Of a stretch of 64,000 nt of DNA, positions 1-59,296 are shown in pieces. The stretch is from IMG/VR virus record IMGVR_UViG_2565956708_000007; one strand, given 5' to 3'. The stretch comes from a virus. Lineage: Duplodnaviria > Heunggongvirae > Uroviricota > Caudoviricetes. Below the pieces are notes generated by a model. The model did not search any database and was not told the origin of the DNA. It saw only the letters and a program-made list of their open reading frames with translations. Position numbers and translations under genes: made by a program. Every line of letters begins with the position of its first letter. The first letter of the stretch is position 1.

Positions 1-1
1 T

Positions 2-469
2 TTCGTTTGCAGTTGGAACAATTTTTGAAGCATCAAGGCCAATCACTTTTGGGTAAACAGCGCCGTCTGTCCTTTCTGTCACCATACTTCTGACTAAGGA
101 AAAATAACTATTGTTTGTTGAGGGATTTAAAGGCACCACTGCCCCCTTAAACGAGCCTACTGATTCCCATATTGAATAATTTTCAGTATTTACAGTCTTG
201 AACTCACCATAGATATTACGTATGGCATCACCTTGAGCGGATAATATTGTTCTCCCCGCATCCACACCACGTCCGTCATCCCAGCCGCGAATAAACTCAC
301 CGCGTAAATCCGGTAATTTATCGGTGGGATAAGCCTTTGCCAGTTCTGGGTATTCTTCAGCAGAAAAAGCTGCTCCGTTGCATTTTAGCCAGCCTGTTGG
401 CGGAGTGGCTGAGGGCCACGGAACAGGTACGCCAACAGGCAATGCTGAGCCTTCCCCCAAACCAACGTT
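2..469 (-). CDS. Tail-fibre variable C-terminal cassette, partial (continues past window start); invertase-proximal, promoterless alternative cassette of the invertible segment
   Basis: Minus-strand frame open from 469 to the window edge; translation starts NVGLGEGSALPVGVPVPWPSATPPTGWLKCNGAAFSAEEYPELAKAYPTDKLPDLRGEFIRGWDDGRGVD, the conserved motif of Mu/P1-type invertible tail-fibre cassettes; an in-frame TAA sits immediately 5' at 470-472. Confidence 0.6.
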
Positions 470-477
470 TTAGTCTT
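452..477. other. cix/gix-like inversion crossover site, copy 1 (TTCCCCCAAACC AA CGTTTTAGTCTT)
   Basis: Resembles the Mu gix site as I recall it (TTCCTGTAAACC GA GGTTTTGGATAA); lies exactly where the tail-fibre cassette frame opens and just upstream of the invertase gene. Confidence 0.45.
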
Positions 478-531
478 AATCCCTACCTATACCAACGATG
501 TATTTTTAACTAAACAAAGAGGTTGTTTTTC

Positions 532-613
532 ATGCAAATTGGCTACATTCGTGTGTCAACAAATGACCAAAACACAGATTTACAAAGAAATGCACTGAAC
601 TGCGCAGGATGTC
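532..613 (+). pseudogene. Truncated 5' fragment of the invertase gene (27 codons) created by the tandem duplication
   Basis: MQIGYIRVSTNDQNTDLQRNALNCAGC is identical to the N-terminus of the full cin gene at 775, then runs out of frame into antisense tail-fibre sequence. Confidence 0.6.
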
Positions 614-694
614 TGCTCCGTTACATTTCAGCCACCCCGTTGGTGGTGTGGCTGAGGGCCACGGAACAGGCACACCAACGGGCAGCGCCGATCC

Positions 695-720
695 TTCCCC
701 TAAACCAACGTTTTAGTCTT
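695..720. other. cix/gix-like crossover site, copy 2 (TTCCCCTAAACC AA CGTTTTAGTCTT)
   Basis: Second copy, 243 bp from copy 1, one mismatch. Confidence 0.45.
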
Positions 721-774
721 AATCCCTACCTATACCAACGATGTATTTTTAACTAAACAAAGAGGTTGTTTTTC

Positions 775-1347
775 ATGCAAATTGGCTACATTCGTGTGTC
801 AACAAATGACCAAAACACAGATTTACAAAGAAATGCACTGAACTGCGCAGGATGTGAACTGATTTTTGAAGATAAAATAAGCGGAACAAAGTCAGCCAGA
901 CCAGGCTTGAAAAAGCTGCTCAGAACGTTATCAGAAGGAGATACGCTGGTTGTCTGGAAGCTGGATAGGCTTGGCAGAAGTATGAAACACCTTATCACGC
1001 TTATAGAGGAGTTGCGGGAAAAAGGTGTTAATTTCCGTAGTCTGACAGACAGTATTGACACATCAACACCCATGGGGCGTTTCTTTTTTCATGTCATGGG
1101 TGCTTTAGCAGAAATGGAACGTGAATTAATTGTTGAGAGAACACTGGCCGGACTGGCAGCTGCACGCGAACAGGGACGCATTGGCGGACGTCGCCCGAAG
1201 TTGACAAAAGAACAACATGAGCAAATAGCGAGGTTGATCGAAAATGGCTACAGCAGGAAACAGTTGGCAATTATTTACGATATCGGTGTATCGACGATTT
1301 ATCGTTATCATCCTGTAGAGAAGCGCCAAACTCAATCTGAGCTGTAA
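775..1347 (+). CDS. cin: Serine DNA invertase (Cin/Gin/Hin/Pin family)
   Basis: MQIGYIRVSTNDQNTDLQRNAL...VVWKLDRLGRSMKHL...GRFFFHVMGALAEMERELIVERT with C-terminal HTH; ATG at 775 follows RBS AAGAGG; track ORF begins at the upstream TTG 766. Confidence 0.92.
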   Translation: MQIGYIRVSTNDQNTDLQRNALNCAGCELIFEDKISGTKSARPGLKKLLRTLSEGDTLVVWKLDRLGRSMKHLITLIEELREKGVNFRSLTDSIDTSTPMGRFFFHVMGALAEMERELIVERTLAGLAAAREQGRIGGRRPKLTKEQHEQIARLIENGYSRKQLAIIYDIGVSTIYRYHPVEKRQTQSEL

Positions 1348-1782
1348 TTCTAATGCCGCGTCGGTGTAATTTATCTTGATAGAATAGGTACATTTATCGC
1401 GCGGCACATCAATTCGATGTATCTAGCGCCTGCTGGCCGCTAATGAAAACTGTTCTCGAAATGTTGTCCCTAGTCCGAGACTAGGGTATCACCTCTGGAA
1501 AGCATACGCAGAACCTTTTTTAACCCAGGGTGCCCAGCTTTTTTGCTGCTCGCCTTATTCGCAAAAATTAGCTCACATCCTGCGCTTTCAAGTGCTTTTC
1601 ACTGCATAGCTGTGTTTTGTTCATTTGTCTATATGCGTACATAGCCTATTAGCATATTTTCTGCCCACTATCGTTATTTATTGCAAGCTACAGGTTTTAA
1701 TTAACAAAACCAGTGTGTGTGGAAATCACAAAGTGCATACCGTTCTCAAATGTTGTTCAACTTACTGTTGTATAGGTAAAAA

Positions 1783-2046
1783 ATGACATTTTATGTACAT
1801 ATCGTGATGTTATCCCTTCTTGGTGGGGTGTATTCGTATTTGAGTGGGCTATGTGAAAACCGTTACGAGTCTTCATGCAAGAAATTGCTGGCCGAATGTA
1901 TTTCCGCCGTACTTGCTGGCTTTATTGGCATGTATCTCGCGGAATATAAGGACATGAATGAAAGCCTTCAGAGCTGCATGGTTCTTATTTTCAGCGCCAA
2001 TAGCAGGCTTATTATTGAAGGTTCCAAAAGTCGGTTGAATAGGTAA
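1783..2046 (+). CDS. Small two-TM membrane protein, holin-like (position of lydC)
   Basis: 87 aa with two hydrophobic segments, immediately upstream of lydA. Confidence 0.4.
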   Translation: MTFYVHIVMLSLLGGVYSYLSGLCENRYESSCKKLLAECISAVLAGFIGMYLAEYKDMNESLQSCMVLIFSANSRLIIEGSKSRLNR

Positions 2047-2120
2047 GTCTCTTATGCAACATAACCGGTTGAGAAGTTACTTTGCATACCATTACCTCCT
2101 GACAACGTAGGAGGGAACTT

Positions 2121-2450
2121 GTGCTTGACACACAGGAATTAGCTCCAGTTGCTATTGCGCTCCTGCTTTCAGTAATTGGTGGGATAGGCACGTTCCTGAT
2201 GGATGTCCGAGACGGTCGCCAGTCTGGCAATTTGTTGGGATTGGTTACGGAGATCTTTGTTGCAGTGACAGCTGGCGCGGTGGCGTACCTATTGGGGCAA
2301 CACGAGGGCTGGGAGTTATCAATTACGTACTTAATGGTAACGATAGCCAGCAATAACGGTCATGAGGTGATTTCAGGGATGAAACGAGTGAATATCGATA
2401 GCATTCTGAATGTTCTTACAAGTTTGGTGAAAAAGGGAGGCGGGAAATGA
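2121..2450 (+). CDS. lydA: Holin LydA-like
   Basis: 109-aa membrane protein, GTG start after GGAGGG RBS, overlaps next gene; matches P1 lyd position. Confidence 0.55.
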   Translation: MLDTQELAPVAIALLLSVIGGIGTFLMDVRDGRQSGNLLGLVTEIFVAVTAGAVAYLLGQHEGWELSITYLMVTIASNNGHEVISGMKRVNIDSILNVLTSLVKKGGGK

Positions 2451-2890
2451 TTGGCTGGGGTGTATGCGTTCTTGCGTTAGCCTTAGCCGATCGCTATTTG
2501 CTAAAACGCAAGGACATCACGCATTTAGAACTTGGTGATGTGGAAATTAAACCGGGTTTCATCCGGGTGCCGTTCAAATACCGGTCTAAATTCCCGTTTT
2601 TGCGCGGCGCAACGGTCAGATATTGGATCCGCGATGTTCAGAAGCCGACGACAGTGATTGAAGGCGAACAACGTTGTTTGACGTCGGCTGAACAGGGCGA
2701 AAACAGTGAATGGTTGTACATACCCACTGAATATATGGGTAAAGGAGAGCGACTGTGGCATTTCAACGTCATGGTTACGCATGGCGACTCGTTCATTAAC
2801 CCGTTGTATCGGATTTTCCCTGTTACTCAGCAAATCCGCAGAAGTTACGTAATAAATCTCGCACAGGATGTGTCAGATGACGAAAAATAA
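2447..2890 (+). CDS. lydB: Antiholin LydB-like
   Basis: 147 aa, translationally coupled to lydA, in the P1 lydA-lydB-hdf-darA arrangement. Confidence 0.55.
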   Translation: MIGWGVCVLALALADRYLLKRKDITHLELGDVEIKPGFIRVPFKYRSKFPFLRGATVRYWIRDVQKPTTVIEGEQRCLTSAEQGENSEWLYIPTEYMGKGERLWHFNVMVTHGDSFINPLYRIFPVTQQIRRSYVINLAQDVSDDEK

Positions 2891-3479
2891 GTATGCAACA
2901 GTCGATTTTGACCAGGTTAATGAAAAGGGGCTGAAATCCCTTATCGCGGCGATCAATAAAACCGGTGTTACGGTAATTGAGGTTGACTCCAGCAACCGCG
3001 CAACAACGAAAGATGGCGTTAAAGTTAAAACCGCAAAGCTGGTTCTTAACGACGGACAAATTCTTGCCATACAGGTAAACGATACTGGCGATATATCGTC
3101 TGTGAGGCTGAATGGAAAAGCTATTCCTAACGCTCAGTCGCCGGATATCAAGACGCTTGGTACCGTCATGGGGCAAGCGGCCCGCAAAAACTCCGCAAAA
3201 TTCCAGAAATCACTGATCGCCAAAGCGAAACGTGTTGCCAATCCGGTAGACAAGAAACCGGCAGTAAAATCCAACTTTCAGCGCCTGCAAGAGGCAAAAC
3301 AGCGGAATGCTCAGGTGGTTGCCGCTTATAAATCAGCGCAGAACTCGGTGTCTTTCAATCAACAGCAGATCACTGATTTGCGGGCGAAGCTGGATAAGGA
3401 GACAGGCCGACTCAATAACGAAAAGGCCCGAAATGGCGAACTCAAACGCCGTCTTAAGCAACTGAAAGCAGGAAATTAA
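2868..3479 (+). CDS. hdf: Hdf, homolog of a DarA fragment (Dar antirestriction operon)
   Basis: 203 aa; shares the KNSAKFQ..coiled-coil segment with the following DarA ORF. Confidence 0.6.
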   Translation: MCQMTKNKYATVDFDQVNEKGLKSLIAAINKTGVTVIEVDSSNRATTKDGVKVKTAKLVLNDGQILAIQVNDTGDISSVRLNGKAIPNAQSPDIKTLGTVMGQAARKNSAKFQKSLIAKAKRVANPVDKKPAVKSNFQRLQEAKQRNAQVVAAYKSAQNSVSFNQQQITDLRAKLDKETGRLNNEKARNGELKRRLKQLKAGN

Positions 3480-3480
3480 C

Positions 3481-5400
3481 ATGGAACAGTTCAATATCAA
3501 TAAAGGGGTGACGATCAAGCCTGGGCTTGACGTGCTTCCCCCGCCAGTGACTGATGATGAATATCGCGCATTAATGGCCGGTGAGGACCGCTATCTGATG
3601 ACGGAATCCAACACCCTGGAGGAAATCGAGGCTACGTTCTTCTATGACACGCCGATCCACTGGTGTGCTACGGATTTACTGGAGGCGATTAGTTCTACTC
3701 GTTTGCAGTTACACCGGACCATGCAGGCATTTGTCCGGGCATTGAACCAGAAGCTGAATGGTACCGGAATCTCTGCGGGGAGTGATAAAACGGGGGATGT
3801 GGCCCAGAGCGGCGCGCGCGCGATCGGCGGCGCTGAAATTGGCCGGGCACGTAACGTTAACGGGCTGCCGGTCTTGCCAGCCATTATTCCGCTCAGTGAT
3901 GGTCAGACTATCAGCATTCTGTTTCATAGCCCGACAGCGGAAAACCGGATCACAAATAGCGATACGCTGGTTGCTTTCCAGTTCTTACTGAATAAAAAAG
4001 ACGTTACTCACACCGTTGCTCCGATGAGTGGACGTGATATGACGCTGGCGCAGGTCACCATGAAACTTGCCAACCTTGCAGAGAAAAACTCGGCAAAATT
4101 CCAGCGTGCGCAGAAGAAGAAAAAAGCCCTTGTTGATGAAATAACCCAACTACAGGCTGACAGTGACCAGAAAGAGGATGCCATGAGCGACCTCGCGGAT
4201 CAGGTGGCAGCGGTAGAAGGGCAGAAGGCAGATCTGGAGCAGAAAATTAACGCTGTTGCATCGGAAGCGGATTCTCTTTATGAAGAGAATGAGCGTTTGC
4301 AGACGGAGATTGATCAGCTCAATCGCACTGGTGGGCGCGATACCATTGCTCCAGCGGGGATGACTGGTGGGCACTCTCGCGCGCTGACGGATCGCCTTGC
4401 CAGTATCAAAAATCGTATGCATATGGACGGGGAAGTGACGCTCAGTAATGGTGCATCAATGAAGCAATTCATTGGGGGCGGCGAAGGGTATATCCAGTTA
4501 ACCGATCCGGATGGCAGCGTATACATGATCAAGGCTAAATCCATACAGGGTGTGGACATGGCAGATGCGATCGGCAAGCTGTTTAAAGCCTATAAAGCGG
4601 GTAATGTATCGGAATACCTGGTCCAACCAGAAGAACATAAACCGGAAAACGTCGAACCTGAACCAGCGGAGGATACCGGTAGCTCTTCGCCTGAACCAGA
4701 AGTCTCTGTAGGTGCATATCGATATGCCCTGCAAATGCGTCCGGCGGCCCCTGGCGCAATACCTGAAGGTAACAAAGCAATTCTGCCGCGCCCTGATGAA
4801 GGTGACCCGTATTATGAATATGCACGCTACGGCATTGCTACTTACGATACCCCGCTTTCTGATCAGCAAATGAGTGAGTACGACCTGAAGTTATTGCCTC
4901 GCGAGGATTCTTTCGACTTCCTGGCGAAGACACTTACTAATGGTCCGTTTGGCAAATATGCACAAAAAGCTCTGGAGCTGGCCACCAGCTCACCAGACGA
5001 GTTCCGCGTAATGCTGAAAACTCAGTTTCAAAAAACTTTCCCCAATATTGCGTTTCCTGGGGGCGCTGGCACCGAGAAAATGGTGCAGAGCATGATCAAT
5101 GCATTGCAGGCCGAAGTCGGTGAGATTACTCAGCCAGAACCGGCTCCGGCACAGCCTGATGAAACGGTTAGCGAAGCAGATGCAGAGGCTAATAAAGCCA
5201 TTGAATATCTCAATAACGTGATGGATATACAAAGCACTGACATGGCGGAGATCCGTAACGCCCGGGGCAATGTCCGGGAAGCGATTGCAGCCCTTCAGGC
5301 TGCCGGACGTTTTGAGGAAAACGAAGAGCTGGTTAACGGCGCAGCTCGCCACCTGGCTGATCTGTTGGTAGCAATCCAGAAAGCGGGGGTAGCGGCATGA
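3481..5400 (+). CDS. darA: DarA, capsid-internal antirestriction protein
   Basis: 639 aa ORF in the hdf-darA-ddrA-ddrB order; size matches P1 DarA as recalled. Confidence 0.75.
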   Translation: MEQFNINKGVTIKPGLDVLPPPVTDDEYRALMAGEDRYLMTESNTLEEIEATFFYDTPIHWCATDLLEAISSTRLQLHRTMQAFVRALNQKLNGTGISAGSDKTGDVAQSGARAIGGAEIGRARNVNGLPVLPAIIPLSDGQTISILFHSPTAENRITNSDTLVAFQFLLNKKDVTHTVAPMSGRDMTLAQVTMKLANLAEKNSAKFQRAQKKKKALVDEITQLQADSDQKEDAMSDLADQVAAVEGQKADLEQKINAVASEADSLYEENERLQTEIDQLNRTGGRDTIAPAGMTGGHSRALTDRLASIKNRMHMDGEVTLSNGASMKQFIGGGEGYIQLTDPDGSVYMIKAKSIQGVDMADAIGKLFKAYKAGNVSEYLVQPEEHKPENVEPEPAEDTGSSSPEPEVSVGAYRYALQMRPAAPGAIPEGNKAILPRPDEGDPYYEYARYGIATYDTPLSDQQMSEYDLKLLPREDSFDFLAKTLTNGPFGKYAQKALELATSSPDEFRVMLKTQFQKTFPNIAFPGGAGTEKMVQSMINALQAEVGEITQPEPAPAQPDETVSEADAEANKAIEYLNNVMDIQSTDMAEIRNARGNVREAIAALQAAGRFEENEELVNGAARHLADLLVAIQKAGVAA

Positions 5401-5762
5401 CACTATCAGCTATTGAGTTAATGGATCTCAGCGATAAGTTGGATGCTCTGATGTCCAAAGCGGCGACCGCGAGTGGCATGGAGTTGCTGGATATCAGCGA
5501 TGAAATTGACCAGATCATGCAACAGATGGGGTACGGCGCGTCCGGCGGTGGTAGTGGCGAGGAAAAACAACCTTCGGAACATGATGGTGTGCCAAAACTG
5601 GTTGCTGATTTCCTGGCTGATAAATTCGTCGATCAGAGCACCGATGCATTTATCGGTACCTTGCAGGATTTGAGTCAATATGTTGGCACATACATCGACC
5701 TGGACCAGGTTAAACAGCACACTGCGGCATGGATAGCCGCCAACATTAAAGAGGCAGCATAA
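5397..5762 (+). CDS. ddrA: DdrA
   Basis: 121 aa, start overlaps darA stop; position in dar operon. Confidence 0.55.
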   Translation: MTLSAIELMDLSDKLDALMSKAATASGMELLDISDEIDQIMQQMGYGASGGGSGEEKQPSEHDGVPKLVADFLADKFVDQSTDAFIGTLQDLSQYVGTYIDLDQVKQHTAAWIAANIKEAA

Positions 5763-5774
5763 GGCGTAACAGGG

Positions 5775-8762
5775 ATGAGCTTAAGCGATCAGGTGGTAAT
5801 GGCCACCAGCATAGAAACGCTGATCGAGCTGCTAAAGAACCTGCCCGATTATGGGCGGGTTTCGTATGTGGTGACAGCGAAGGGAGACGAGGTAAAAACA
5901 GCGTTTGATATCGTCGATGCCTCAGCTCTTTTGGTATCCAATACTCTGGATGGGAAAATTAATCCTGACTATCCCCAGGAACTTCAGCCGCGCGACCGGA
6001 CCCGCGCATCCAGCCTTCTTCAGGTTAACCAGATATCCAAAGATTTGCGGCCAGCTCAGCTTACTGATTCCGGTTTATCCAGCCATGGTGCGCCAATAAT
6101 TGGTGAGGACAATGCCGTTGAGTCAGGTAATGGGCGGACCATGGGGATCATTAAAGCCTATCAGGACGGTAATGCGGATCGGTATCGGGAGTACCTGATT
6201 GAACATGCGACCGAATTCGGCATACGGCCTGAAAAGGTTGAATCAATGACGGCTCCGGTACTGGTGCGCCGCCGGTTAACGAAGGTTGACCGTGTTCAGT
6301 TTGCCAAGGACTCAAATATTTCTGATCTCCAGGAAATGGCAGCCAGTGAAAAGGCTTTTGTTGATGCCGACAGCATAACACCGGCGATGATGGCGTTGTT
6401 TAACCCGTCAGAAAGTGGAGATCTGCTTAGCCGCAGTAATGACGCGTTTATTCGCGGATTTATGACGCAAGTTGGTGCCACACAGGCGGCTGGCCTTGTA
6501 ACTGAAGATGGGCGACCAACACGGCAACTTGTAGACCGTATACAAAACGCGATCTTTGCCAAGGCATATAAGGATGCGCGCCTGGTAAGGATGGTTGCAG
6601 AAGAACCTGATCCGGATATGCGTAATGTTCTGACGGCGCTTAATGCGGCAGCCAATGATTTTGTCCAGATGCAGGCTTTATCAGGAGAAGCGCACAAGCA
6701 GGCTGTGACAACTATTGTTGATGGCATTGAGACAGCGGATTGCCTCGATAAAAAGGCGCTGGCGGCATTGAAAGATGCGGTAGACCTGGTAAGGCAATCG
6801 AAGGAGTCAGGCCAGCATATTACCGATGTTATTGCTCAGGGGGATATGTTCAGCGAAACGGCCCCGGAAGTGAAAGCACTCGCGTTGTTCATCGTCGCGA
6901 ATAACCGTAGCGCGAAGCGTATGGCCACCGCCTTTAAGTTGATGGCTCAACGTATCAATGATGAGTTACAGCACCAGGGCCAGGCGCTGGGGGATATGTT
7001 TGGCGGCGGCGATGTGTCGTTACAGGATATCCTTCGCCAGGTGTCTCAGGAACTGGAAAACGAAGGCATGCAAGGGATATCCGGCGGTCTTTTCGAGTCC
7101 GTTTCCGGCGGTAGTTACAACGGTGTTGCTCCGTATACCAGTTTGCTATTACATCGGGCATCCGGCATCAAAGACATTATTCATCTGATCAGGCTGCTTT
7201 CCCGCACAGATCCCCAGGATGAACAGCTTGTACAAGTGCTTGCGCATTTTGTTCGAATGCCTGTTGCCGACGTGAAAAAATGGTGCCGATTATTCGGTAT
7301 CAGCAATTCGTTACTTCGCGGCTTGTTAAATCACGCATCCTCCCTTGGGCGCGATGGCTTTGACGAGATAGCGCAGGCGATAAAAAACGGAGATATGCCA
7401 CCAGCTATTGACTGGTTTTCCATTCGCCCAACCAGGGTGAAAGCATTCCTTAGCGCGGCGCATTCGGCATCACCATTGGCAGAAATGGTTCAGAGGTTGT
7501 CGCTCATATTCACAGACCATACCGCGTTGGGTGACCTGACTCTGGACGAGATGAAAGAAGCCTCCATTCAGTGGGCCGATCAACAAAATGAGGTTAACTC
7601 AGACTTCTTGCCAGCATTCAGGAAGGCCGTTAGTAAAGCGGATGATGCCCGTGGAATTCTGAAGGCATTTAAGGCATTGCAAAGTCGTGTTAATAAACAT
7701 GTCGGTGATATCGATGGGGTAACGGCGGAAGGCCGGGATATCCTTAAAGAGCACGGCATAACGCCAGAGTTTATTGATGAGATCAGGACTGATATGCAGC
7801 GTGAGGTCGTATCGTCCCTGCAAATCGTAGCCAGAGCGTTGGCGGATGCTAATCCGAAGAGTGCGGCCATTGTTAACCGTGTTATTGGTGATATTGAAGC
7901 ATCGGAGGGCATGGGGGCGCTGAAACTCTTCCTTTCGCGAGCGTTTAATCCTAACGGCAATATTCTCCCCGGCATTATTGGTGAGGCTAAAAAGTATGTC
8001 AGCGAAGAAGAACTTGAGCATCTTGACCAACTACTTAAGCGATTCTCATATAACCCGCAGACACGCTGGCAAATGAATCAGCAAAGTATGGGTTCGGTCC
8101 ACGAGAAAGTGTTATCTGCCATGAACAGTGCGATCGCCAACTCATCCGTATCTGAAGAAAAAGCTCTTGAGTGGGCTGACTCTTTTATCACGGAAGAAGT
8201 GGAAGAAGCCCGCGCTGGACAGAATGGTGGGATAGACCTGCGCAAGGAACTTGCTGATATTTATCGCCTGACCGGCGGTAAAATTTCGACCTTATCAAAG
8301 GTGGTTCACCACCAGGGAAGGGCATATGCAAATATTAATGGTGTTGTTGCTGTCAATTTGAACGATGAAAATGCAAGTGCACTGTGGCACGAGCTGGGTC
8401 ATCATCTTGAGTACAGTAACCCTGGTTTGTTAGAGAAAGCCCGGTCATTCCTGAAGGCCAATGTTGAAGGGGATAAGCCATCTTTCGTTAATATCGGTGG
8501 GCGTGGCAAGCCTGAATGGTGCTTCAGATCTCGATTGAGTAATATTTATATGGCGAAGGTATACCCGCCAGCCTCAGTAAGTAACACCGGGAAAATTCGG
8601 CAGAAATCACCGACTATTTCCAAAACGTCAGCAACGGAAGTATTCTCTATGGCTCTTCAGTTGTATCATGACAAAGAGGCCGCTGCCGCATCACTGATGA
8701 ATGGTGACGGATTGCTGGAACTGTTATTAGGTGTGGCAAAGGAGCTAAATAATGCAGATTAA
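5775..8762 (+). CDS. ddrB: DdrB, large Dar operon protein; contains an HExxH zinc-metallopeptidase-like motif (WHELGHHLE)
   Basis: 995 aa ORF following ddrA; motif read from translation. Confidence 0.65.
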   Translation: MSLSDQVVMATSIETLIELLKNLPDYGRVSYVVTAKGDEVKTAFDIVDASALLVSNTLDGKINPDYPQELQPRDRTRASSLLQVNQISKDLRPAQLTDSGLSSHGAPIIGEDNAVESGNGRTMGIIKAYQDGNADRYREYLIEHATEFGIRPEKVESMTAPVLVRRRLTKVDRVQFAKDSNISDLQEMAASEKAFVDADSITPAMMALFNPSESGDLLSRSNDAFIRGFMTQVGATQAAGLVTEDGRPTRQLVDRIQNAIFAKAYKDARLVRMVAEEPDPDMRNVLTALNAAANDFVQMQALSGEAHKQAVTTIVDGIETADCLDKKALAALKDAVDLVRQSKESGQHITDVIAQGDMFSETAPEVKALALFIVANNRSAKRMATAFKLMAQRINDELQHQGQALGDMFGGGDVSLQDILRQVSQELENEGMQGISGGLFESVSGGSYNGVAPYTSLLLHRASGIKDIIHLIRLLSRTDPQDEQLVQVLAHFVRMPVADVKKWCRLFGISNSLLRGLLNHASSLGRDGFDEIAQAIKNGDMPPAIDWFSIRPTRVKAFLSAAHSASPLAEMVQRLSLIFTDHTALGDLTLDEMKEASIQWADQQNEVNSDFLPAFRKAVSKADDARGILKAFKALQSRVNKHVGDIDGVTAEGRDILKEHGITPEFIDEIRTDMQREVVSSLQIVARALADANPKSAAIVNRVIGDIEASEGMGALKLFLSRAFNPNGNILPGIIGEAKKYVSEEELEHLDQLLKRFSYNPQTRWQMNQQSMGSVHEKVLSAMNSAIANSSVSEEKALEWADSFITEEVEEARAGQNGGIDLRKELADIYRLTGGKISTLSKVVHHQGRAYANINGVVAVNLNDENASALWHELGHHLEYSNPGLLEKARSFLKANVEGDKPSFVNIGGRGKPEWCFRSRLSNIYMAKVYPPASVSNTGKIRQKSPTISKTSATEVFSMALQLYHDKEAAAASLMNGDGLLELLLGVAKELNNAD

Positions 8763-57066: not shown

Positions 57067-57142
57067 TGGTGGCCCCTACCGGACTTGAACCGGTGACCGT
57101 GCGATTATGAGTCGCCAGCTCTAACCACTGAGCTAAAGGGCC
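57067..57142 (-). tRNA. tRNA-Ile2 (anticodon CAU, lysidine type; Met not excluded)
   Basis: 76-nt cloverleaf; sequence GGCCCTTTAGCTCAGTGGTTAGAGC...CTCATAA...GGTTCAAGTCC...CCA closely resembles E. coli ileX as I recall it. Confidence 0.85.
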
Positions 57143-59142: not shown

Positions 59143-59218
59143 TGGTGCCGATTAACGGACTCGAACCGCTGACATCCTGCTTACAAGGCAGGCGCTCTAC
59201 CAACTGAGCTAAACCGGC
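59143..59218 (-). tRNA. tRNA-Thr (anticodon UGU)
   Basis: GCCGGTTTAGCTCAGTTGGTAGAGCGCCTGCCTTGTAAGCAGGATGTCAGCGGTTCGAGTCCGTTAATCGGCACCA, full cloverleaf with encoded CCA. Confidence 0.9.
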
Positions 59219-59220
59219 AT

Positions 59221-59296
59221 TGGCGATGGTGGATGGATTTGAACCATCGACCCGTTGATTAACAGTCAACCGCTCTAACCGCTGAGCTACACCATC
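59221..59296 (-). tRNA. tRNA-Asn (anticodon GUU)
   Basis: GATGGTGTAGCTCAGCGGTTAGAGCGGTTGACTGTTAATCAACGGGTCGATGGTTCAAATCCATCCACCATCGCCA. Confidence 0.9.

Follow-up and report, generated by a model that had tools for sequence, protein, structure and literature searches.

Architecture of the locus

The window analysed here is the whole stretch of 64,000 nucleotides, corresponding to positions 5401–69400 of KI538682.1, a scaffold of E. coli HVH 12 (4-7653042) in assembly GCA_000494955.1, with identity checked over the first 10,756 bases. The locus described forms the right-hand end of a Min multiple-inversion region of the p15B type, carried on a P1-like phage-plasmid. A minus-strand tail-fibre cassette (T2) meets a crossover site, which is followed by the first codons of an invertase gene, the head of another cassette (T1), a second crossover site, and the full-length invertase gene (Table 1). 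Downstream of the invertase the backbone is P1-like, with the lydC/lydA holins, lydB, darA, ddrA, and ddrB.

Table 1. Features at the left end of the 64-kb window
Feature	Position	Strand	Description
Tail-fibre variable cassette T2	1..469	-	5' end at 469, 3' end cut by the contig edge; Collar domain
Outer crossover site mixA	452..477	+	TTCCCCCAAACC AA CGTTTTAGTCTT; predicted exchange point 464/465; from pattern search
Duplicated 54-bp spacer, site to invertase ATG	478..531	+	Includes the Shine-Dalgarno region; identical to 721-774
Truncated invertase fragment min'	532..612	+	Codons 1-27, then in frame to a stop at 754-756
Partial putative enhancer copy	550..612	+	63/72 bp homologous to the P1 annotated enhancer
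Orphan stub of cassette T1	613..712	-	First 33 codons, NVGLGEGSALPVGVPVPWPSATPPTGWLKCNGA
Inner crossover site mixB	695..720	+	TTCCCCTAAACC AA CGTTTTAGTCTT; predicted exchange point 707/708
Full-length Min-type serine DNA invertase	775..1347	+	190 aa; Pfam Resolvase + HTH_7
Full putative enhancer homologue	793..864	+	Inside the invertase 5' end; 58/72 identity to the P1 annotated enhancer
psi-cin, decayed P1-type cin 5' end	1479..1658	-	In-frame stops; outside the duplication

A 243-bp tandem repeat is present in this sequence as two head-to-tail units. Tandem Repeats Finder returns one array at 370–855 (period 243, 2.0 copies, 94% matches, 0 indels, score 874), and a second repeat search returns the same two copies, units 370–612 and 613–855. 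The coordinates and anatomy proposed in the earlier note on this DNA are thereby upheld by repeat finding and by direct comparison of the units. Each module opens with the 5'-terminal 96 nt of a tail-fibre cassette and runs through a mix site and the 54-bp spacer into the invertase gene min, as far as nt 81. Compared base by base, the units differ by 14 mismatches, all at unit positions 10–88 and all to the left of the crossover core, on the cassette side. The rightmost lies at 458 in copy 1 and at 701 in copy 2. Unit positions 89–242 (154 bp) are without any difference, in agreement with the earlier claim that the portions from site to invertase are identical. The tail-fibre portions had been described as differing at about 16 of 96 positions; the divergence stands, but the actual count is 14 in 89 bp.

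The novel joint between the units reads GGATGT/CTGCTCC, with no homology at the join and no base common to either parent. To its left lies the truncated invertase fragment that had been recognised in unit 1, where the stretch from the ATG at 532 to 612 gives 27 codons, the same as at 775–855. Translation of the listed open reading frame extends the fragment into a fusion ORF at 532–756 of 74 aa, in which residues 3–27 of min' give a weak Resolvase N-terminal match. The 74-aa fusion protein is ESP10959.1 of E. coli HVH 12, which comes from one contig among ~15 billion proteins. Its stop codon falls 3 nt ahead of the min Shine-Dalgarno sequence. A search for a consensus sigma-70 promoter at 300–1800 gave no match.

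Crossover sites and enhancer homologue

The crossover site is 26 bp long, with imperfect dyad symmetry around a 2-bp core, and can be aligned to cix. The 26-bp string TTCCCC[C/T]AAACCAACGTTTTAGTCTT has exactly two matches in the 64-kb window, the two sites of Table 1, with 0 expected in shuffles. The form TTCCCCNAAACC AA CGTTTTAGTCTT aligns to P1 cixL, TTCTCTTAAACC AA GGTTTAGGATTG, where the annotated crossover coincides with the core; the right arm matches poorly. The predicted exchange points were set by this alignment, using the annotated crossover point of cixL. The sister plasmids NC_017653.1 and NZ_CP065205.1 have short Collar cassettes in arrays, with one and the same left half-site at the head of every cassette. 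The cassettes lie on both strands, and several of the crossover sites are directly oriented ~480–520 bp apart. Two direct crossover sites 243 bp apart had been pointed out in the earlier note, and the pair is there, but direct repeats as such are normal in Min arrays. The unusual points are confined to the spacing of 243 bp and to the piece of invertase gene that separates the sites.

The P1 annotation places the enhancer of Cin-mediated inversion at cin nt 19–90. Within its homologue in min, two G...C 15-mers are candidate Fis cores at 796–810 and 845–859 (min nt 22–36 and 71–85), 49 bp apart, and the distal candidate, GCGCAGGATGTGAAC, fits all four scored key positions of the Fis consensus. 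The proximal candidate site lies 96 bp from each crossover core. In Hin the enhancer lies ~100 bp from the crossover site (PMC3798978), so that the spacing matches the 96 bp seen here. The upstream copy keeps only 63 of the 72 bp because the duplication ends at min nt 81, and in the P1/min alignment it departs from homology from enhancer position 64 onward. Its distal predicted Fis site reads GCGCAGGATGT/CTGC, cut after position +3, with the purine at +4 lost and the C at +7 retained by chance. The suggestion that the enhancer might also be duplicated is therefore borne out for a partial copy but not for a complete one, since the predicted distal Fis site is interrupted by the break.

Two cassette heads

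The window contains one cassette and one stub, with full arrays seen only in the sister plasmids, here loci L001, L002 (NZ_CP065205.1), and L026. The cassette T2, the minus-strand ORF at 1–469, matches the Collar domain (Pfam PF07484, E=2.4e-15). Window positions 1–612 are 100% identical to L002 6001–6612, where a T2-type cassette adjoins the invertase. The T1 stub reads, on the minus strand, through 33 codons and then 27 antisense-min' codons to a stop. An orphan tail-fibre stub of 30 codons had been proposed earlier; the stub is confirmed, with a length of 33 codons before the antisense invertase sequence. Positions 613–714 match, at 100% identity, the 5' start of an internal cassette (L002 5339–5440, L001 5853–5954), which in both sister plasmids is full-length and different from T2. 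The T1-mix-min and T2-mix-min joints are each found as single copies in many plasmids.

Both tail-fibre portions encode NVGLGEGSALPVGVPVPWPSATPPTGWLKCNGA in the minus-strand frame. Their 14 differences comprise 13 third-codon positions and one synonymous Leu first position, so that all are synonymous, an outcome seen in 0 of 200,000 random placements of 14 changes. Because random placement did not once give this result, both heads appear to have evolved as working genes, with no divergence after duplication. As each matches a cassette of its own in the sister plasmids at 100% identity, the two copies carry, judged by these identities, two genuine cassette heads and not one diverged duplicate. 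The view that the tail-fibre portions derive from two variable cassettes is thus corroborated.

Identity of the inversion system

The protein encoded at 775–1347 has the architecture of a Din-family serine invertase (~190 aa), with a Resolvase domain (PF00239, E=2.1e-51) and a C-terminal HTH_7 domain (PF02796, E=3.4e-15). Identity is 100% to WP_001165547.1, the product encoded in L002, and to the invertase of many E. coli phage-plasmids. It shares 99.5% identity with the pJIE250-3 invertase and 72.6% with P1 Cin. The pJIE250-3 invertase has been reported to be 98.5% identical to Min of p15B (PMC6906374), and the likeness to p15B Min thus goes via the pJIE250-3 protein and not via the p15B sequence directly. 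The Min multiple DNA inversion of plasmid p15B is the work of Sandmeier, Iida, and Arber in 1990–1992, as cited in PMC5903667 and PMC11850598. The invertase gene adjoins the crossover site with its 5' end. By sequence comparison the inversion system is Min/mix of p15B-type phage-plasmids and not Cin/cix of P1.

The genes and sites had been named cin and cix in the earlier note. These names do not hold, given the 72.6% identity to Cin and the arrangement in P1, where cin abuts cixL with its 3' end instead of its 5' end. A P1 Cin/cix identity is ruled out by this level of identity, by the opposite gene arrangement, and by the presence of only a decayed cin relic. It had also been considered that canonical P1 might carry the same arrangement as a known pseudo-cix site. 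When P1 was compared at this position no pseudo-cix arrangement was found, and its cin is oriented the other way round. The relic, psi-cin, lies in a segment (window 2304–1479) that is 85% identical to P1 31000–31837, and in the repeat search it forms part of inverted repeat I1. It is common to p15B-type plasmids and is also present in L001, L002, and L026.

Occurrence in relatives

Searches for the novel joint point to a single record. A 100-bp junction probe, run by megablast against 5,426 complete E. coli genomes and PLSDB, gave only split, single-copy matches. Wherever plasmids and complete E. coli genomes include the region, two-piece matches are without exception 243 ± 1 bp shorter in span than the query, which indicates a single copy. 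The three-piece match in NC_017653.1, the one examined, is due to a neighbouring cassette. An exact 23-mer across the joint had no match in GTDB species representatives or IMG/VR, and a 19-mer gave 23 matches in JGI metagenomes, all by chance (20–26 nt without context). Duplication of the module was seen in none of the ~150 related plasmids, 18 viral contigs, and chromosomal relatives examined, and the min enhancer string occurs once per contig in 18 IMG/VR contigs and one GTDB contig.

A probe for the min 5' end found 152 places in 148 PLSDB records, with two places in four of them. Of the two-copy records the one examined was pPC6-mcr1, in which two complete min genes lie close to the ends of the record, within a duplication around the Min region that is 99.6% identical with indels. 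This is a different thing from duplication of the 243-bp module. Among the databases searched, the novel junction is confined to its source record, KI538682.1.

Possible origins of the repeat

The reading preferred here, with a rough probability of 0.58, is a private, recent, and real tandem duplication that became mosaic through Min inversion or through exchange between inversion isomers. The duplication itself would need one illegitimate join without homology, linking min nt 81 to a position on the cassette side of the mix core, 95 nt away from it (613 vs. 707–708). Min would exchange strands exactly at the 2-bp core, so that the sequence left of each core would be the cassette last placed there by inversion. 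The observed restriction of all differences to the cassette side of the exchange point is the pattern expected if Min recombination sets what lies left of the core. Two routes could lead to this structure. The module may have been duplicated with T1 beside min, T2 then taking the place of T1 through an inversion at the outer site. In the other route, the two sister molecules that were illegitimately joined would have differed in inversion state.

A serious rival, possible but held at less than even odds, is that the repeat is an assembly artefact. The plasmid would then have a single module in a mixture of Min isomers, with T2 or T1 beside min, and the alternative joints would have been strung together at the contig end when assembly or later patching or polishing joined the two isomer junctions. 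The source scaffold lends weight to this explanation. Positions 527–5400 of KI538682.1 are 4,874 Ns that replace the Min region, window position 1 is the contig edge immediately after this gap, and the repeat sits 370–855 bp from that edge. The 526-bp contig ahead of the gap has the same 33-nt mix-site string at both its ends, an indication that this repeat family broke the assembly. The caution about assembly error in the earlier note gains weight from the short distance, 370 bp, between the feature and a contig edge that borders a 4.9-kb gap. Reads from mixed inversion isomers would contain precisely the two alternative joints that the copies represent. Both joints are single-copy in many relatives, and the unit is barely longer than needed to span an isomer joint. 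The restriction of the junction to the source record among the databases searched is also in keeping with an artefact, as is pPC6-mcr1, a public record of the same plasmid family with an evident duplication around the Min region.

Against an artefact stands the joint itself. It has no shared bases, and a k-mer or de Bruijn graph should be unable to cross it unless the reads contain it. The HVH genomes were presumably assembled with ALLPATHS. By our own calculation the k-mer branch points for K=96 would be expected at 620 and 553, and neither breakpoint lies there. There are also no N bases at the join 612/613. A systematic artefact finds no echo in the 18 IMG/VR contigs and one GTDB contig, which are single-copy with contig ends at varied distances. 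In other drafts of the plasmid family contigs end 23, 57, 133, 372, 578, and 647 nt from the core, and the assembler signature sought in them, contig ends 96 nt from the core, was not found.

A junction made by Min itself, through recombination between quasi sites in min and in a cassette on sister molecules, is very improbable. A half-site-like string, GATTTTTGAAGA, does occur at 862–873, just past the breakpoint, and Cin is known to use quasi-cix sites. However, this string is offset from the breakpoint by 5 bp, and no likeness to the conserved left half TTCCCCNAAACC is seen on either side of the joint. The products of serine invertases share the parental 2-bp core, whereas the joint has no common base. 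A Min-mediated origin of the joint was rejected on these grounds, the lack of a shared core and of a half-site.

It is likewise highly unlikely that the repeat is a selected functional module, acting as a regulated OFF position for tail-fibre expression or raising Min expression. The module does hold all the known cis elements, namely the site, the spacer, and most of the putative enhancer, and the position of the fusion ORF stop just ahead of the min Shine-Dalgarno sequence could be read in the same way. Nevertheless, the module is not conserved in the plasmids, viral contigs, and chromosomal relatives examined, its 154 bp of direct identity make it unstable, and no promoter was detected. Simple tandem duplication of one cassette head with later point mutation, conversion or selection having kept the right part identical, is the default model for any diverged tandem repeat and could draw on the functional site and coding sequence in the right-hand 154 bp, but it is effectively refuted by the identity of both versions to existing cassettes elsewhere and by changes that are synonymous only, where a non-functional orphan stub should decay at random, and it leaves the divergence boundary coinciding with the crossover core.

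Consequences and significance

If the private duplication is real, its two sites would differ in their effect; the proposal in the earlier note that use of the inner and outer sites gives different fusions, one of them unproductive, is plausible. Inversion at the outer site would leave min untouched and switch the tail fibres normally. Inversion at the inner site would instead carry min' and the outer site into the cassette array, and its product would join the constant part of the fibre to 33 cassette codons and 27 antisense codons, truncating the Collar domain. Such a fusion would be a dead end, though one that can be reversed. Invertases that depend on Fis disfavour deletion when two sites are direct repeats. 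Deletion by Min between the two sites should likewise be disfavoured, and Min should not remove the duplication. This is in line with the preference for inversion stated in PMC11850598. RecA recombination across the 154 bp of identity should remove the duplication over time, and such an expected loss fits its restriction to one isolate.

That the duplication is both real and used by Min, giving two alternative right-hand boundaries each ~96 bp from a putative enhancer, is improbable. Were Min to use both sites, inner inversions would flip the site, enhancer, and min' into the array and cap the tail fibre with the stub, and the phage-plasmid would gain a reversible state with no functional fibre. 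The locus would then be a natural test of invertasome choice, with adjacent direct sites and a full versus a truncated enhancer. A real duplication would in any case provide a small natural experiment in a classic system, probing site choice and the enhancer needs of a Fis-dependent invertase, and its mosaic boundary would locate the Min exchange point to within 7 bp from the letters alone.

There is no sign of conservation or selection of the duplicated module, and it is not a new mechanism. It challenges no model and opens no long-standing question. Its main practical value is one of caution. Cultures of P1/p15B-like phage-plasmids are heterogeneous in their invertible regions, which public assemblies often break or join wrongly, and for this reason odd repeats beside invertible tail-fibre regions need read-level confirmation before they are interpreted.

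Comparison with known inversion systems

The system is a known one, Min of p15B and kin of Cin, Gin, Pin, and Hin, and the duplication is at most a private variant of it. The locus shares with Min of p15B a near-identical invertase, a gene whose 5' end lies at the crossover site, a P1-like backbone, and the downstream psi-cin relic. Arrays of short Collar-domain cassettes, each headed by a site, are seen in the sister plasmids, which have sites in direct and inverse orientation, while the window itself has one cassette and one stub. It differs in having two modules in tandem, each with the site, the spacer, and the start of the invertase gene, an arrangement seen in none of the relatives examined. 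The doubling leaves behind a cut-short invertase ORF, part of a further putative enhancer, and the stub of a cassette.

Cin/cix of P1 belongs to the same recombinase family and has a homologous 26-bp site, with AAACC..GGTTT-type arms and a 2-bp core. The enhancer homologue lies at the same codons (58/72), and the role, switching of the tail-fibre C-terminus, is the same. In contrast, P1 has two sites and one invertible segment, which carries Sv/U and Sv'/U', its cin reads toward the segment with a 3' end that overlaps cixL, and it has no duplication. Secondary, quasi-cix crossover sites are reportedly used by Cin, as described by Iida and Hiestand-Nauer. Like the second site here, these are extra crossover sites that lead to unproductive or aberrant inversion products. 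The quasi-cix sites are degenerate look-alikes, whereas both sites here are full and canonical, made by duplication.

Gin/gix of Mu and Hin/hix of Salmonella, whose invertasomes depend on Fis and an enhancer, resemble the locus in having the 5' end of the invertase gene beside the crossover site. Their enhancer lies inside the gene, as the putative one does here. A preference for inverted over direct sites is expected in those systems, as it is here. They differ in having a single pair of sites and a single enhancer, whereas in HVH 12 two direct sites flank a truncated putative enhancer.

Assembly around the Min invertible region

Position 1 of the window (KI538682.1 position 5401) is a contig edge, directly following a scaffold gap of 4,874 Ns that stands in place of the Min invertible region within KI538682.1 1-5400. 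The 526-bp contig ahead of this gap carries the same 33-nt string, AAACCAACGTTTTCATGCTGCCCTTACGATGTA, at both its start and its end. In the sister plasmid pPC6-mcr1 (NZ_CP080254.1), the min invertase and holin genes are present whole and twice, at record positions 1-2534 and 95705-98237, with 99.6% identity and five gap openings between the copies, and the cassette arrays between the two min copies differ in assembly. The double copy has the look of a circular overlap at the Min region that was left untrimmed or joined wrongly.

Open reading frames and related modules

The 74-aa fusion ORF that begins with the truncated invertase fragment min' ends at a stop codon at 754-756, 3 nt ahead of the Shine-Dalgarno sequence of the full min gene (759-765). 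If the upstream min' copy is translated, translation of min could be affected. GenBank gives the name 'DNA invertase' to KUS01773.1 and KUS04427.1, both 41 aa long, but these are antisense ORFs spanning tail-fibre cassette heads and a mix crossover site, and not fragments of an invertase.

Prophages in E. coli chromosomes show the same order of T2-like tail-fibre cassette, site, and invertase at ~91% identity (e.g. NZ_AP045783.1 2210622-2211696), in single copy in every case. The module is therefore common to phage-plasmids and integrated prophages. The tRNA genes of the window are as expected for a P1-like genome.

Features located in the window
Feature	Position	Strand	Details
Decayed relic of P1-type cin 5' end	1479-1658	minus	~59 codons; in-frame stops; enhancer-like stretch included
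tRNA genes Met-CAT, Thr-TGT, Asn-GTT (n = 3)	57067-57142, 59143-59296	minus	

A relic of cin beside min

Downstream of min, and inverted relative to it, lies a relic of cin. It also occurs in L001, L002, and L026, the three loci of sister plasmids that were checked for it. The relic records Min taking the place of a Cin-type system. The homology extends more widely around it, with window 2304-1479 matching P1 31000-31837 at 85% identity, and P1's own annotation ties this region of P1 to p15B nt 7147-7408.
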